A stretch of DNA of 41,745 nt from a bacterium (GCA_030697445.1 JAUYPY010000030.1:1-41745); one strand, 5' to 3'. Shown: positions 4,359 through 36,916, numbered from the stretch's first letter. Numbers and translations are program-made. Notes: generated by a model not told the origin, from the letters alone.

Positions 4359-5479
4359 AAATTTGATTTCAAGCGCCATACACGAAGTACAGATTGATTT
4401 AAACGCTCCTCCGAAATGCGACCAGAAATAACTGCCCATTCAACGGCTTTAATAATCGGCTCATGCAGTTTAGTGGTATAAGTACTAATAATCATATCGG
4501 CACCCGCTTCAATGGCCTGCACAGCGGCTTCTTCAGTTGATATGTTATTTATTCCTTTTGTAGAGGCCATTTCAATGTCGTCGGTGATAATCACCCCATT
4601 ATATCCCCACTCGTTACGGAGTATGCCTGTGAGAAATGTTCGCGAACGTGTTGCCGGAACATCATCAATACTTCCATAAACAATATGTGCAGTCATCAAA
4701 GGCACTTCTGGTAATCTTTCAAGAGCGAAATGAAACGGCTCCAAGCTTTTTGAAATAGAAATTACTGTTTCGTAGGCATTTTTTTGATGCGGATCAACCC
4801 TAATCGCTCCGTACCCAGGAAAATGCTTAAAGACAGGAATCACGCCTGCCGCTTGATATCCGCGTGCCATAGCGACACCAAAATCCGCGGTAATGTTTGT
4901 GGTGGTCGCAAAAGTCCGGTCATATAAATAAGCCAGTTTATCCGGTACATAATCAAGTACAGGCGCAAAGTTCATATTAATACCTAGATTCTTAAGTTCC
5001 GTTCCTCTTTTTTGCGCCACACGAAATGCTTCTTGTTTATTTTTAATATCTTTCTCTGCGGTTAGTTCAGACAAAAAAGGGAAACGAACAACGGTACCCC
5101 CCTCTTGATCGACTGCAATAAAGAGAGACGGCACTCCGGCTTCAGACGCAAGTTTTTGCAATGACGCAGAAAGATTTCTGCTCTGTTCTGCGTTTTCTAT
5201 ATTATGTCTTAAAAGATTTACTCCGCCAATACCATACCTTGTTATCAATTGCTTGATATGTTCATCGGGGACTTTTGTCGCAAAACCAAAAATCATAAGT
5301 TGCCCAATTCGTCTTTCCAAAGAAAGATTTCTGATTTTCTCAAGCAGGACTTTTTCCTTGTCAATCGTCGGAGAAGCATCGATGTCGTCTTTTTGAAATG
5401 GAACTACATATCCATGAAATAAAAAAATGGGTGAAAGAACGATACCGAGCACCAAAAGTATTTTCAGATTTGTATTCAT
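4355..5479 (-). CDS. nagZ: GH3 beta-N-acetylhexosaminidase with N-terminal signal anchor
   Basis: 374 aa. GH3 N-domain motifs VDQEGGTVVRF, KHFPGYG and ITDDIEMAS. N-terminal TM segment LKILLVLGIVLSPIFLF. Confidence 0.8.
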   Translation of the reverse strand: MNTNLKILLVLGIVLSPIFLFHGYVVPFQKDDIDASPTIDKEKVLLEKIRNLSLERRIGQLMIFGFATKVPDEHIKQLITRYGIGGVNLLRHNIENAEQSRNLSASLQKLASEAGVPSLFIAVDQEGGTVVRFPFLSELTAEKDIKNKQEAFRVAQKRGTELKNLGINMNFAPVLDYVPDKLAYLYDRTFATTTNITADFGVAMARGYQAAGVIPVFKHFPGYGAIRVDPHQKNAYETVISISKSLEPFHFALERLPEVPLMTAHIVYGSIDDVPATRSRTFLTGILRNEWGYNGVIITDDIEMASTKGINNISTEEAAVQAIEAGADMIISTYTTKLHEPIIKAVEWAVISGRISEERLNQSVLRVWRLKSNL

Positions 5480-5490
5480 ACATATTCACT

Positions 5491-5518
5491 ATTCTGATAT
5501 TCTCAAGAACATCAGAAT
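5491..5518. promoter_or_regulatory. 28-nt palindromic operator-like site, copy 1 (12 nt upstream of nagZ ATG)
   Basis: attctgatattctcaagaacatcagaat. The outer arms ATTCTGAT and ATCAGAAT are reverse complements. Confidence 0.55.
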
Positions 5519-5535
5519 GGGTGGTGTGCCAATGC

Positions 5536-5823
5536 TTATTCTAATGTTCTCAAGAACTTCAGAACATACTCAGCGCGGTCGGTAAGTTTGTGTCGAATAG
5601 AAACACTGTCGGACTTTTTAAGCACCAAACCAGCAATCGCAAGACGGCGCAGGTGGTCGGCGGCAGTCTTATAGTTGATATCAAGCAGTTCAGTGATTTC
5701 ATCTACAGACATTTCCGGTGTATTCTTCAGAATCTCCATAATCTGAATGCGCCGATGATTTGAAAATCCGCGCACCAATCGCTCAAGCGTGCGATAATTC
5801 TTTGCCTCTTTATTTTTATTCAT
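5536..5823 (-). CDS. ArsR/SmtB-family winged-helix transcriptional regulator
   Basis: 95 aa. FSNHRRIQIMEILKNTPEMSVDEITELLDINYKTAADHLRRLAIAGLV matches the ArsR HTH pattern. Confidence 0.8.
   Translation of the reverse strand: MNKNKEAKNYRTLERLVRGFSNHRRIQIMEILKNTPEMSVDEITELLDINYKTAADHLRRLAIAGLVLKKSDSVSIRHKLTDRAEYVLKFLRTLE
5538..5565. promoter_or_regulatory. 28-nt palindromic operator-like site, copy 2 (overlaps the last codons of the ArsR gene)
   Basis: attctaatgttctcaagaacttcagaac. It lies 19 nt from copy 1, giving a tandem pair upstream of nagZ. Confidence 0.5.
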
Positions 5824-32577: not shown

Positions 32578-33651
32578 TCATTTTTGCAGTGCTTCAATTC
32601 CCGGAAGCGTACCGGTAGCCAAAAATTCAAGCATCGCGCCGCCGCCCGTTGAGACAAACGAAAACTTGTCGTGGATGCCGAGCCGAGCAATCGCGGCGAG
32701 TGTGTCGCCGCCTCCGACAATCGTTTCTGCGCCGCTTTCGGCAAGCGCGCGCGCCACTCCTTCCGTGCCTGCAGTAAAACCGCGCTCGTATTCTCCAAGT
32801 GGCCCGTTCCACACTATCAACTTCGCCTCGCGCGCGCGCGCGCGAATGTCGGCAACGGTTCTCTCTCCCGCGTCCACAATTCTATCCTCGCTTCGCACGG
32901 CATCTTGTGGCGCACATAATTTTGAGTTATGCAACAAAACGCTCGGAAAAGCCGTCGCGGAAACAGATGAACTACCCACCGGCTCGCCACGCGCCTTAAG
33001 TACATCATTTGCAAGCACCCCTCCGATATATACCGTATCGGCAATAGAAAGAAATTTCTCAAGAAGCGGTAATTTTGTTTCCGTCTTTGCGCCTCCGAGT
33101 ATAAACAAAAACGGGTGCGCTGGAGAAAATGCTTTTGAGAGATTCTGCACTTCTTCTTCAAAAAGAAATCCTGCGTAATGGGGCAGAAACTTCGGTACGC
33201 CGACCACCGACGCATACGCGCGATGCGAGGCGGAAAATGCTTCGTTTACATACACATCCGCAAGCGATGCAAGTTTTTTTGCAAATGCTTCTTCGTTTTC
33301 TTTTTCGCCTTTTAATTGGCGGATGTTCTCCAATAAAACAAACGAGCCATTCTCCGTTTTTTCAAGCGCGGTTTTTGTTTCTTTAGTTGTTTTTGCAAAA
33401 ATGACTGGATACTGCTTCTTCAATTCTTCATACACCGGAACGAGCGAGTCATTTTCATTGGTTCTGTGCGATACAAGAAGCGTGCGTGCGCCGTTTTCTG
33501 CCAAAAAATCAAGTGTTTTTTTGCTGCGTGTAATGCGGTAGTCATCAACCATCTTTCCACCCTGTATCGGCACATTCAAATCAATTGCCAAAAATACGCG
33601 TTTCCCGCGTAGGTCTACGCACTCCCGAATCGTCTTAAAATTAAGCGTCAT
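32578..33651 (-). CDS. pgk: phosphoglycerate kinase
   Basis: From the ATG at 33651: MTLNFKTIRECVDLRGKRVFLAIDLNVP... The C-terminus reads STGGGAMLEFL. The first 88 codons of the track ORF overlap tpiA and are rejected. Confidence 0.85.
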   Translation of the reverse strand: MTLNFKTIRECVDLRGKRVFLAIDLNVPIQGGKMVDDYRITRSKKTLDFLAENGARTLLVSHRTNENDSLVPVYEELKKQYPVIFAKTTKETKTALEKTENGSFVLLENIRQLKGEKENEEAFAKKLASLADVYVNEAFSASHRAYASVVGVPKFLPHYAGFLFEEEVQNLSKAFSPAHPFLFILGGAKTETKLPLLEKFLSIADTVYIGGVLANDVLKARGEPVGSSSVSATAFPSVLLHNSKLCAPQDAVRSEDRIVDAGERTVADIRARAREAKLIVWNGPLGEYERGFTAGTEGVARALAESGAETIVGGGDTLAAIARLGIHDKFSFVSTGGGAMLEFLATGTLPGIEALQK

Positions 33652-34405
33652 TGGCAATTTGTATAATCCACGCGAACGCCTCGGCATCCAAGCTTTCGTG
33701 CCCCACGAGAAATCCGGAAATGTCACCGTCGCGCAAAAGCGCTCCGGCATTTTCCGGACCCACGCTCCCGCCGTACAAAATGGGAACCGCAACGCCTTCC
33801 TCACCAAACATATCAGCCATAACTTTGCGGATAAAGATTGTGGTCTCGCGCACGATCGCGGGCGACGCGGCATCGCGCCAGTTCTTACTGATCGCCCACA
33901 AGGGTTCATACGCAATCACGATATCCGATAAAAATCGGCGCTGGACTTTTGAAAACGACGCCTTCATCTGCTCGCGCAACACGCCAAAAAAATCACCATT
34001 TTCATCACGCGCGCGTTCTCCTATGCACACAAGCGCTGACAAGCCCTCACGCACAACCGCTTGCGCCTTTCGCGACACCATATCATCTGTTTCCCATCGC
34101 GCGCGACGCTCCGAGTGCCCGACGATTGAAAGCGTTACGCCAATGTCTTTCAGCATTTCCGGAGACACTTCACCGGTGTGCGGCCCACCGTTTCGCCAAA
34201 ACGCGTCTTGGGAGCCAAGCGTAATAACGCCATTTGAAAGACGCGAAAAAAGCGGCACAAACGGGAACGGCGGACAAATCGTGACGGAGACCCGCCGCGC
34301 TTGGGTTGCGGCGCGGCGGGTTGCGAGAAAAAGCGCACGCGCCTCCGCCGCCGTCCCCGGGTTCATCTTCCAATTCGCGATGATCAACTTTTTACCATTT
34401 TTCAT
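33641..34405 (-). CDS. tpiA: triosephosphate isomerase
   Basis: 254 aa. IIANWKMN, VGHSERR and YEPLWAI motifs. Confidence 0.9.
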   Translation of the reverse strand: MKNGKKLIIANWKMNPGTAAEARALFLATRRAATQARRVSVTICPPFPFVPLFSRLSNGVITLGSQDAFWRNGGPHTGEVSPEMLKDIGVTLSIVGHSERRARWETDDMVSRKAQAVVREGLSALVCIGERARDENGDFFGVLREQMKASFSKVQRRFLSDIVIAYEPLWAISKNWRDAASPAIVRETTIFIRKVMADMFGEEGVAVPILYGGSVGPENAGALLRDGDISGFLVGHESLDAEAFAWIIQIANDA

Positions 34406-35408
34406 TTCGTCTAGTATACAACATTTCTTTTATTTTAGATGCTGTACGGAATCCTTTACAGTGCTCCAATAATCCAAGATATGACGGTAGATTTATACGG
34501 TTCACCCGCTTCAGCATCCTTTTTCTGGTTCGCGTCCGCAGTACCCGATAATGCGGAAGAGAAACATATCCAAGAAAATCAGTTCCTTGTCGCAGTTTCC
34601 GTAGGGAAACTTTGCGCGGGTGGAGTTCCAGCAAGAGTTTGTCGCGCAAAAACATCTGAATGCGTGCAATCAACCACATCAATGCTGCACGGCTTTTATC
34701 CAAAATCACAAAATCATCGCAGTAACGAATGTAGTATGGTGCCTTGAGCGTGTGCTTTACAAACTGGTCCAGTACATTTAGATAGATGTTGGCGAAAATC
34801 TGACTGGTTACATTGCCGAGCGGCAGACCTTTGTTCGGTGCGACCTCAAAAGAAGAGATGATGCGGTGAATAAGAGTGAGGAGATTTTGGTCGGTGATTC
34901 TGTGTGAAATGCTAGAAAAAAGAATGCGGTGGTCAATGGAATCAAAAAACTTCCTGATGTCGCACTTCAAGACAAATGCGGAATTGGTATAGTTTGTAGA
35001 TACTTTTCGCGCAAAGACCTCAAATTGTTTTACGCCTGCGTGTGTGCCCTTACGTTCTCTAGAAGCATATGAATCGTGTATGAATGTATTATCAAATATC
35101 TGATACAATTCTTGATATACAACTTGAAATAGAACGCGGTCTCGAACGCTCGGGACATGAATGATGCGTGGTTTTGGGTCGGCAATGGGCTGGCGTTCAT
35201 AGGGGTCGTTTGTCCACACGCCAAAAGCAAGCTGTTCGTGGAGAGAAAAGAGGTTTTCTTCCAAATACAACTCAAACCTTGCAAATTCACTATCGGTTCG
35301 CTTTCCTTTGGAAAACCTCCGCCATGCGCGAAGTAGATTTTCCGGAGAAATTAGAGCATAAAAATCACTATTATGACGCCCCCCCCCCGACCGTACTCCA
35401 TCCGTCAT
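34392..35408 (-). CDS. DGR-type reverse transcriptase
   Basis: 338 aa. LGNVTSQIFANIYL (the I/LGxxxSQ signature of DGR RTs), YIRYCDDFVIL (YxDD), and an N-terminal ENLLRAWRRFSKGKR motif. Confidence 0.9.
   Translation of the reverse strand: MTDGVRSGGGRHNSDFYALISPENLLRAWRRFSKGKRTDSEFARFELYLEENLFSLHEQLAFGVWTNDPYERQPIADPKPRIIHVPSVRDRVLFQVVYQELYQIFDNTFIHDSYASRERKGTHAGVKQFEVFARKVSTNYTNSAFVLKCDIRKFFDSIDHRILFSSISHRITDQNLLTLIHRIISSFEVAPNKGLPLGNVTSQIFANIYLNVLDQFVKHTLKAPYYIRYCDDFVILDKSRAALMWLIARIQMFLRDKLLLELHPRKVSLRKLRQGTDFLGYVSLPHYRVLRTRTRKRMLKRVNRINLPSYLGLLEHCKGFRTASKIKEMLYTRRNEKW
35379..35388 (-). repeat. G10 homopolymer (C10 on plus strand) in RT codons 7-10
   Basis: gacgCCCCCCCCCCgacc, encoding S-G-G-G-R. 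Confidence 0.95.
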
Positions 35409-35409
35409 T

Positions 35410-35742
35410 TTGAAGATTCGTCTGTTGCATAAAGAGATTTACGATATTGGGAAGAAATTGCCGAAGGGGGATAAATTGGGGATTCACACGACTGTTGAAA
35501 AATACACTCTAGAACTACTCGCCACAGCCATCGCGGCATCCCTTACTTCAGGAAGAGAGAAAATCCCCTTACTGAAAAAAGCGCGCATTCAAGTTCACCA
35601 AGTAATTCACCTCATCCGAACAGAATATGAACTTGGTATTGTTATGGAGAAAATATACCTGCGCCTGTCCGCACAACTAGTTGAAATTGCAAAGATGTTG
35701 AATGGTTGGATAACCTACGAAACGAACAAAGAGTCGCGATGA
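35410..35742 (+). CDS. avd: Avd-like four-helix-bundle protein (23S rRNA IVS protein family), TTG start
   Basis: 110 aa. KEIYDIGKKLPKGDKLGIHTTVEKYTLELLATAIAAS...EIAKMLNGWI matches the four-helix-bundle/Avd pattern. Opposite strand to RT, TR and VR. Confidence 0.7.
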   Translation: MKIRLLHKEIYDIGKKLPKGDKLGIHTTVEKYTLELLATAIAASLTSGREKIPLLKKARIQVHQVIHLIRTEYELGIVMEKIYLRLSAQLVEIAKMLNGWITYETNKESR

Positions 35743-35750
35743 CTCTTTGT
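35726..35750 (-). other. perfect 10-bp hairpin 12 nt 3' of the TR
   Basis: Arms acaaagagtc and gactctttgt, loop gcgat. Overlaps the avd stop codon. Confidence 0.7.
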
Positions 35751-35761
35751 GCGAGAAATTT

Positions 35762-35875
35762 CTGAACGGGCGCCGTTATTCGGGTTGCAGTTGTCGGCAT
35801 AGTTCCAGTTGAGGTAGACCTTGCGATTGTCCGGATTCCAGTTGCCGTTCGCAACCTTGTCGTCGCGGAGACGGT
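35762..35875 (-). repeat. DGR template repeat (TR), 114 nt
   Basis: Aligns without gaps to 36142-36255. In the VR frame it reads RLRDDKVANGNWNPDNRKVYLNWNYADNCNPNNGARS, which is rich in AAC/Asn codons. Confidence 0.9.
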
Positions 35876-36050
35876 ACCTCGTTATGCCGCGCTTCGTCCG
35901 TATCACCGAGAACCTTTTTCAAGATTCTCTGTGTTTCCTCGTGGTAGAACGAGCGTAGTATAAAGACGTGGCAAGCAATTTCTTTGTGTGGCAAACTGTT
36001 ATCGCGCCAGAGGCGGACCAATTTCACAGCCAGTTTTAGTATAACAAAAG

Positions 36051-36089
36051 CCCCGACTTTGTCATCCGTAAGCGGAGACAAAATCGGGG
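36051..36089 (-). terminator. terminator hairpin after the DGR target gene
   Basis: Arms ccccgactttgtc and gacaaaatcgggg with one wobble. On the minus strand the hairpin is followed by CTTTTGTTAT. Confidence 0.6.
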
Positions 36090-36115
36090 CGGGGTAAGGA
36101 TTAAGGGAAGAAGGG

Positions 36116-36916
36116 TTAAGACCTAAGGGGAACCTTCTTTGCTGAACGGGCGCCGTAAGACGGGTTGCAGCTGCCGGCATAGCTCCAGTAGAGGTAGACC
36201 TTGCGATAGCCCGGATGCCAGTAGCCGTACGCAACCTCGCCGCCGCGGAGACGGTCTTCTGGGAACCAAGTCCATGTCTCTGGATCTAGATGCTCTCCGG
36301 TAACGACATGATGCATGGTGTCTGCATCGCACCAGCCGAAGAGACCGAGCCAGAGTTTGTTCTGGATTTTGACGAGTTGGTCTGGACTTTTGGCGTAGTC
36401 GCTGAGGGTGTCGTCGTCTGGTTTGACAGAACGATTGATGAGGTAGAGTTCGGGCTCTTTCTGGCCTTTGCTGTTTGTGTACTTCATCACATCTGTCTCT
36501 TCGTATGGCTTGTTTTCTCCCATTTTCAGTTTCCATTCAATCGCATGGCGATTGGTGGCGCCTGCAGGACGGAAGGCGGGCATGAGGGTGGTGCTTGCGA
36601 GTTCTTCGTCCGTAAGGGAGAAGAGGTCTCGTAGTATCACTAGTTCTCCTATGAAGAACCTGTGGAGTTCCTCTCGCGCTTTAAGCCAGTCGGCGAGGGT
36701 GTGACCGGTGGAGCGGAGGGTGGGGATGTGCGGGGATTCCTCAATCTGCGTCTTCTCCTGTTTAGGAACCCAGCATGGTTCCTGTCTGTTGAACTTATTG
36801 AGTTCAGTGAGTACCTCTTGACCCTTTTCTCCGTTTAATTTCACGAAGAGGTCAGAAATCGGTCCCTGCAAGAGTACACGGAGCGATTCGTTGTTGCCGA
36901 GCATGCCGGTTTGCAT
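36116..36916 (-). CDS. DGR variable (target) protein, VR at C-terminus; no signal peptide seen
   Basis: 266 aa. The C-terminus reads RLRGGEVAYGYWHPGYRKVYLYWSYAGSCNPSYGARSAKKVPLRS. GAAAGGA lies 8 nt upstream of the ATG. Confidence 0.85.
   Translation of the reverse strand: MQTGMLGNNESLRVLLQGPISDLFVKLNGEKGQEVLTELNKFNRQEPCWVPKQEKTQIEESPHIPTLRSTGHTLADWLKAREELHRFFIGELVILRDLFSLTDEELASTTLMPAFRPAGATNRHAIEWKLKMGENKPYEETDVMKYTNSKGQKEPELYLINRSVKPDDDTLSDYAKSPDQLVKIQNKLWLGLFGWCDADTMHHVVTGEHLDPETWTWFPEDRLRGGEVAYGYWHPGYRKVYLYWSYAGSCNPSYGARSAKKVPLRS
36142..36255 (-). repeat. DGR variable repeat (VR), 114 nt
   Basis: 15 mismatches to the TR, all at TR positions that are A on the minus strand (plus-strand T changed to a, c or g). 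None of the 82 non-A positions differs. Confidence 0.9.

Follow-up and report, generated by a model that had tools for sequence, protein, structure and literature searches.

A diversity-generating retroelement of the Patescibacteria type with a reverse-strand avd gene: a catalogued layout and its probable expression as three units

The closest described relatives of the element considered here are the diversity-generating retroelements (DGRs) of the Candidate Phyla Radiation (CPR). In the catalogue of Wu et al. (2018, NAR 46:11, PMC5758913), 90% of 126 CPR DGRs have Architecture B3, written TR-(avd)-RT for template repeat, accessory variability determinant and reverse transcriptase, the parentheses marking the reverse strand. 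The DGR of Bordetella phage BPP-1 has Architecture B1 (mtd-avd-TR-brt); its cDNA synthesis requires RNA on both sides of the TR, with about 140 nt needed 3' of the TR and priming at Sp A56. In a preprint, Handa et al. (10.1101/2023.10.23.563531) describe an Avd-binding stem-loop just 3' of the TR and report predicted stem-loops of this kind for 207 of 278 Avd-containing DGRs, CPR included. We studied a DGR carried by a bacterial contig of 41,745 nt (GCA_030697445.1, JAUYPY010000030.1:1-41745; the whole of this stretch is called the window below), in which an avd-like gene lies reversed between the TR and the RT gene, a layout that an earlier note on this DNA had taken to be atypical. We find an ordinary DGR of the Patescibacteria (CPR) type, and we consider it probable, at about 80%, that this B3 element, with the order target/variable repeat (VR) - TR - (avd) - RT, is expressed as three separate units.

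The RT, the Avd-like protein and an adenine-only TR/VR pair are all present in the window. The RT gene (34392-35408, minus strand) encodes 338 residues that match RVT_1 with E=8e-23. The motif [I/L]GxxxSQ in domain 4 is the mark of a DGR-type RT, and LPLGNVTSQ, a motif of this type, can be read directly in the translation, GLPLGNVTS being invariant across the RT relatives. At E<=1e-10 there are 7290 RT homologues, the named ones being Patescibacteria. The VR (36139-36255, minus strand) is a 117-nt direct repeat, 86% identical to the TR (35759-35875, minus strand), and the 16 mismatches between them all fall at a T of the TR plus strand, that is, at an A of the minus strand; the DGR is therefore read on the minus strand. 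The VR lies within the last 40 or so codons of the DGR target gene, an open reading frame (ORF) of 266 codons (36116-36916, minus strand), and ends 23 nt before its stop codon; a Pfam scan of this target gene gave no match. The avd-like gene (35410-35742, plus strand; 110 residues) stands reversed between TR and RT. The minus-strand target/VR, TR and RT, the plus-strand avd-like ORF between them and the hairpin next to the TR are all where the earlier note had placed them. The exact locus was found in one contig alone.

The reading of this layout as atypical does not hold. Comparison with the catalogued DGR architectures puts the inverted arrangement in a common class: the order found here, TR, reverse-strand avd and RT without any other accessory gene, is that of B3, and the named relatives of both RT and Avd (Taylorbacteria, Paceibacteria, Saccharibacteria and others) belong to the CPR/Patescibacteria with which B3 is associated. 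The locus resembles the B3 DGRs of the CPR in order, in orientation, in the upstream target gene with a 3' VR and in host group, and no difference of layout separates it from them. Two surveys of relatives agree with the catalogue. For the first, the contigs bearing the best 80 RT relatives were taken from GTDB, with one genome per species, and scanned with an Avd hidden Markov model (HMM); an Avd match was found in 75 of the 80 and, in 74 of these 75, it lay on the opposite strand, abutting the RT gene upstream. The second used an independent set of 80 metagenome loci, 60 of them with enough upstream sequence, and returned an inverted avd abutting RT in 53 of the 60, four further inverted genes with longer ORFs, and three loci without a match. 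A same-strand avd beside RT was seen neither in the 75 Avd-containing genome loci nor in the 60 usable metagenome loci. In the more distant lineages reached by look-ups with Avd, the RT and avd starts are also head-to-head, 9-23 nt apart. In this RT clade, avd is as a rule reversed and head-to-head with RT, and the layout is ordinary because B3 is already catalogued as the CPR default and both surveys agree with it. The abutment of the two start codons, the G:C tract at their junction and the structured leader of the TR, all treated below, are seen here and are not described in the available text of the catalogue of Wu et al.

From features conserved in the relatives, a scheme of expression in three units (TR RNA, avd and RT) can be proposed. 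The first, the TR RNA, would start from a promoter at about 36065-36038 and would comprise, in this order, a structured leader (about 155 nt), the TR, a linker of 12 nt, the stem-loop and a U-rich tail; its flanks would supply the 5' and 3' RNA for self-primed, adenine-mutagenic cDNA synthesis by RT and Avd, as in the Bordetella phage DGR. The second, avd, would converge on the TR unit, the last codons of avd being the other strand of the stem-loop. The third, RT, would diverge from avd, each of the two promoters lying within the 5' coding sequence of the other gene. RT and Avd would then act in trans on the TR RNA, and a TR-to-RT transcript antisense to avd would not be needed.

Evidence for the 5' part of the TR unit comes from a conserved, structured non-coding leader directly 5' of the TR (35882-36036, minus strand). 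In a four-way alignment of close relatives, its nucleotides are better conserved than those of the TR itself. In an alignment of 31 sequences, two helices of the leader are 93% paired, against 73% in shuffled and 32-51% in slid alignments; compensatory changes are found in 17 of 20 pairs, and the covariation score is 0.64, against 0.27 (shuffled) and 0.08-0.21 (slid). The covariance model built for it (R1) has a single match in the 41.7-kb window, at 35882-36036 on the minus strand with 120 bits, and matches 35 related loci, seven of them outside the training set (36 sources with the window); it detected no leader in the sub-clade, described below, whose RT ATG follows the G run. The conserved motifs of the leader are GATAACAGTTTGCC, AGAAATTGCTTGC, AACACAGA and CTCGGTGATACGGA. 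A scan of the TR flanks against Rfam returned no family, its sole match being a chance one to mir-375. Taken as a whole, the pairing and conservation indicate that the leader is more than a neutral spacer. Upstream of it is a sigma-70-like promoter candidate (36038-36065, minus strand), made up of ATGACA, a spacing of 16 nt and TATACT, with a TG before the -10; it matches the consensus at 10 of 12 positions, and the same elements align in a related locus, L096. By this match, the site is promoter-like and a candidate for the start of the TR RNA.

On its 3' side, the TR is followed by a stem-loop (35723-35753, minus strand) with arms of 13 nt (35723-35735 and 35741-35753) that are 92% complementary around a perfect core of 10 bp. 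It begins 12 nt past the end of the TR homology and covers the avd stop codon, and the 10-bp hairpin reported in this position by the earlier note is confirmed. Most relatives have a stem-loop of differing sequence at the same place, after a conserved TR end (CAGAAATTTCTCGC or CAGAAGTTTC). This hairpin is an expected RNA element of a DGR and corresponds to the published Avd-binding stem-loop: like the elements described by Handa et al., it is a stem-loop of about 9-13 bp just 3' of the TR, known here from sequence alone. Unlike in those elements, a duplex between the upstream and downstream flanks, of the kind called cPRT Stop, is not established here, and in most relatives the stem-loop is followed by a T-tract, as in an intrinsic terminator. 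On the TR-sense strand, a terminator-like hairpin with a T-rich tail occurs in 51 of 73 loci, compared with 4.5% of control windows (a 15-fold enrichment); on the avd-sense strand, a hairpin with a T-tail occurs in four of the 73. In a sub-clade with TR ends like ...TTCATTTCTC, the element resembles intrinsic terminators of the textbook kind, as in CTCCCCGA-loop-TCGGGGAG-TTTTGTTT. We regard the stem-loop of the window as a candidate Avd-binding element, a candidate terminator of the TR RNA, or both. Compensatory changes are seen between the window and two relatives (L091 and L003) in a four-way alignment. When the TR-proximal hairpins were aligned with MAFFT and folded with RNAalifold, no consensus emerged, since stems of differing length and sequence were out of register. 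One arm of the stem (35720-35742) is, on the other strand, the conserved C-terminal tail of Avd (..TQKE/TNKES..), and therefore the Avd C-terminus and the RNA stem are dual-coded. Arms with the purine-rich AAAGGAG and with CTCCTTT recur among many loci.

The third unit concerns the junction between RT and avd. The RT ATG occupies 35406-35408 (CAT on the plus strand) and the earliest candidate start of avd is the TTG at 35410-35412, so the two starts are separated by 1 nt, as had been claimed. The NCBI annotation gives the same gene as a 105-residue 'four helix bundle protein' from a second TTG at 35425, 16 nt from the RT ATG. We favour the TTG at 35410, because the residues upstream of 35425 (KIRLL) are conserved among Avd homologues and some homologues begin even three codons further upstream, with ATG or GTG; the start at 35410 thus seems the likelier, and the divergent gap is at most 16 nt with either. 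From this geometry, the earlier note had concluded that there is no intergenic room for promoters, which stands, and that each promoter must lie within the other gene. In the relatives, the N-terminal codons of avd contain TATAAT-like hexamers, about 11 nt before the RT ATG. Among the 36 loci whose ATG is upstream of the G run, a -10 box matching at least five of six positions within 21 nt upstream of the ATG is found in 19 (8% in controls) and a perfect TATAAT in nine (0.6% in controls). In the sub-clade whose RT gene starts past the G run, a TAnnnT box is found between the run and the ATG, about 7 nt from the latter. The TR-to-RT co-transcript that the note had also considered is disfavoured.

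Several points weigh against expression in three units. The tail that follows the hairpin in the window itself is moderately U-rich (UCGUUUCG), and the RT -10 of the window is degenerate, its best match being TATCGT. Pairing of the 5' flank of the TR with its 3' flank was estimated at -12.3 kcal/mol for cognate and -11.7 kcal/mol for non-cognate pairs, with a permutation p of 0.07. If a need similar to the 140 nt or so of the Bordetella phage DGR applied here, the RNA would run at least 25-90 nt into antisense avd. All transcript boundaries in the scheme are read from motifs. As for Avd, the score of the ORF against the bAvd profile, 33.6 bits, is under the 40-bit gathering cut-off, and the best structural match of the family is weak (E=0.5).

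The alternative that survives best is that the layout is unusual and that TR and RT are co-transcribed, so that the spacer of 350 nt between them would be antisense-avd RNA, serving as the priming spacer and also repressing avd or coupled to it. It draws on the geometry of RT, avd and TR, on the requirement of the Bordetella phage DGR for about 140 nt 3' of the TR and on the weak U-tract after the hairpin in the window, which makes read-through plausible; moreover, the nucleotides just past the hairpin (GTAGGTTATCCAACC) are conserved, though they also encode the invariant GW motif of Avd. Against it, the layout is the CPR norm, terminator-like hairpins with T-tails are 15-fold enriched at this very place on the TR-sense strand, RT has -10 boxes of its own in the relatives and, in the loci whose RT begins past the G run, the promoter comes after the antisense-avd stretch. 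We therefore hold such a co-transcript to be unlikely. The earlier proposal of a priming spacer made of antisense-avd RNA is not borne out by the relatives, which favour a separate TR unit with its promoter-like site, leader and stem-loop.

The BPP-1 element and the locus studied here share RT and Avd, adenine-specific changes between TR and VR and a target with the VR at its 3' end, as well as a stem-loop directly 3' of the TR and an apparent need for RNA flanks on both sides of the TR. In BPP-1, avd precedes the TR and shares its strand, and the 5' flank of the DGR RNA is made of the 3' codons of avd, whereas here a non-coding leader dedicated to this role would provide the 5' flank, and avd follows the TR on the opposite strand. 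The spacer of BPP-1 is a non-coding stretch of 140 nt; the corresponding space in the window is filled by the reverse-strand avd.

A second alternative is that no real avd exists at 35410-35742, the ORF there having arisen by chance on the strand opposite a functional spacer RNA. In addition to the Pfam score under the gathering threshold, the TTG start without an evident Shine-Dalgarno sequence could be taken in this sense. The ORF matches bAvd (PF22296) with E=6e-8 over profile positions 6-105 of 107, that is, over its full length. A family profile built from 39 members retrieved 1483 proteins at E<=1e-8; PF22296 is present in every one of those listed, and many homologues are named 'diversity-generating retroelement protein Avd' by NCBI. 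The alignment of the family extends from end to end and has K19, K51, Y83, E92, M96, G99 and W100 conserved, and the top PDB match of its profile, again with a full-length alignment, is the Avd of Bordetella phage (4dwl_A). The ORF is thus very likely a member of the Avd family, as the earlier note had proposed, the single sequence not reaching strict thresholds, and a chance ORF is highly improbable. The weakest alternative, a local misassembly or inversion in the contig of a metagenome-assembled genome, has nothing in its favour beyond the a priori possibility for any metagenome assembly and can be set aside, since the same orientation is found in 74 of 75 genome loci and in 53-57 of 60 metagenome loci from independent assemblies, identical junctions have been assembled repeatedly from different samples in close relatives, and the same-strand avd in related genomes that would betray an inversion was not seen.

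Two related loci have Avd genes of particular aspect. In the closest named relative, a Candidatus Taylorbacteria represented by ten contigs (L003 and L081-L090), avd is split in two frames, one fragment (P0138) having 69 residues, the junction tract is G7 and the RT protein is identical on at least ten contigs from different samples; it may be a decaying or Avd-independent copy. L068 carries a second Avd-like ORF (5266-5673, plus strand) with its own G10 run directly upstream (5253) and a further G10 run (3404) just past the RT gene, which may represent a second DGR cassette or a duplicated junction.

The junction between RT and avd also carries a homopolymer, C10 on the plus strand and G10 on the RT strand (35379-35388), which falls on RT codons 7-10 (S-GGG), 22 nt ahead of the avd TTG. 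It is the sole G/C run of 8 or more within the window. The run is conserved in nucleotide sequence across the RT clade. In a first scan, 64 of 81 loci had a G run of 6-12 at this junction, and several of the missed loci also carry one; among the metagenome loci, it was recovered in 46 of 53. The related loci, 485 kb in all, hold 64 G/C runs of 8 or more, 61 of which are at the RT/avd junction, and GGG makes up only 16% of the glycine codons in RT bodies. The distance from the run to position 1 of the Avd HMM is nearly constant, mostly 13-20 nt, that from the run to the RT core is 46-91 nt, and the usual avd TTG start of the relatives is 8-13 nt past the run. Two arrangements exist. In one, that of the window, the RT ATG is upstream of the run, which encodes the GGG of GGGxH, a motif conserved at the RT N-terminus in the alignment of relatives; in the other, the RT ATG is about 13 nt downstream and the run is untranslated. 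In the loci with the upstream ATG, the frame set by this ATG leads through the run into that of RT in 19 cases and misses it in 19, the close relatives L014 (G7) and L015 (G9) both being out of frame; homopolymer assembly error could explain these counts. In four loci without a G run, the same junction carries dinucleotide repeats, (CT)~19 in L042 (about 2910-2950), (TG)13 in L043 (about 2925-2950), (GT)7 in L185 and (GT)8 in L189, which suggests that it is the repeat nature that matters and not the sequence.

Retention of the tract whether it is translated or not, and its replacement by other simple repeats, suggest selection for a length-variable element, which could serve in phase variation of RT or as a promoter spacer. 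Poly-G and poly-C tracts are known from the simple-sequence contingency loci of Neisseria (porA, opc) and from the fim promoters of Bordetella. The junction tract resembles such loci in being a homopolymer of 7-12 nt in a 5' coding region or promoter, with a length that differs between relatives, and in the substitution of dinucleotide repeats at the same site in some lineages. Contingency loci switch, whereas the junction tract is known from consensus assemblies in which one of 15 same-strain contigs differs in length: lengths were sampled by look-ups based on Avd, the look-up by identical RT (P0041) being biased, as the tract is inside the RT protein, and contigs of the same strain from different samples gave five C10 in one group, six C10 in another, and three C11 with one C10 in a third. 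A search of metagenome contigs with the exact flanks found no match with another tract length for the strain of the window. Our literature searches returned no published link between DGRs and homopolymer or slipped-strand tracts, and no relevant work on covariation in DGRs. That the G:C tract is a selected hypermutable element which tunes or switches DGR expression and makes hypermutation phase-variable is a tentative idea, and on balance a doubtful one; if so, changes in its length would shift the frame of the RT N-terminus in loci with an upstream RT ATG and alter the promoter spacing in those with a downstream ATG.

Minus-strand ATGs are present at 35401, 35408 and 35430, all upstream of the G10, one in each reading frame and open through the tract, and therefore some ATG is in frame with RT at any tract length. 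L001 has the same pattern of three ATGs, which could arise by chance with an expectation of roughly 5%. We also considered an N-terminal extension of Avd through the C run (M-x-PPP) and rejected it: an avd-sense ATG is found upstream of the C run in 59 of 61 loci, where it is the antisense of a conserved His codon of RT, and it is in frame in only 20 of the 59 (34%, the chance level).

At the other end of the RT gene, its 3' end overlaps by 14 nt (34392-34405) the start of the triosephosphate isomerase gene (33641-34405, minus strand), and the DGR is wedged directly upstream of the core glycolysis genes tpiA and pgk, on the same strand. On the side of the target gene, a GC-rich inverted repeat (36050-36090, minus strand; GCCCCGACTTTGTC ... 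GACAAAATCGGGGC) with arms of 14 nt, one mismatch and an inner mini-hairpin lies about 47 nt downstream of the VR and is conserved in L096. It may be the terminator of the target gene or the DGR inverted repeat that follows the initiation of mutagenic homing (IMH) site. It overlaps the -35 of the promoter-like site of the TR (36038-36065), and one and the same sequence at 36038-36090 may both end the transcript of the target gene and begin the TR RNA.

The hairpin, the inverted avd and the parts of the DGR are all ordinary, and the interpretation of the locus as an atypical architecture is wrong. It is one more example of the catalogued CPR default, and its layout is no discovery; its use is as a worked example of how the B3 architecture is probably expressed. 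The TR apparently resides in its own small structured RNA, made of leader, TR and stem-loop, apart from the divergent avd/RT pair, and its predicted boundaries show which RNA a reconstitution of a CPR DGR would have to include. The leader RNA with its covarying helices, absent from Rfam, may deserve a study of its own. So may the tract of G:C or other simple repeats between avd and RT, which alone among the features of the locus could be of wider importance: should it control RT or Avd expression, it would provide a built-in control of targeted hypermutation in very small genomes.

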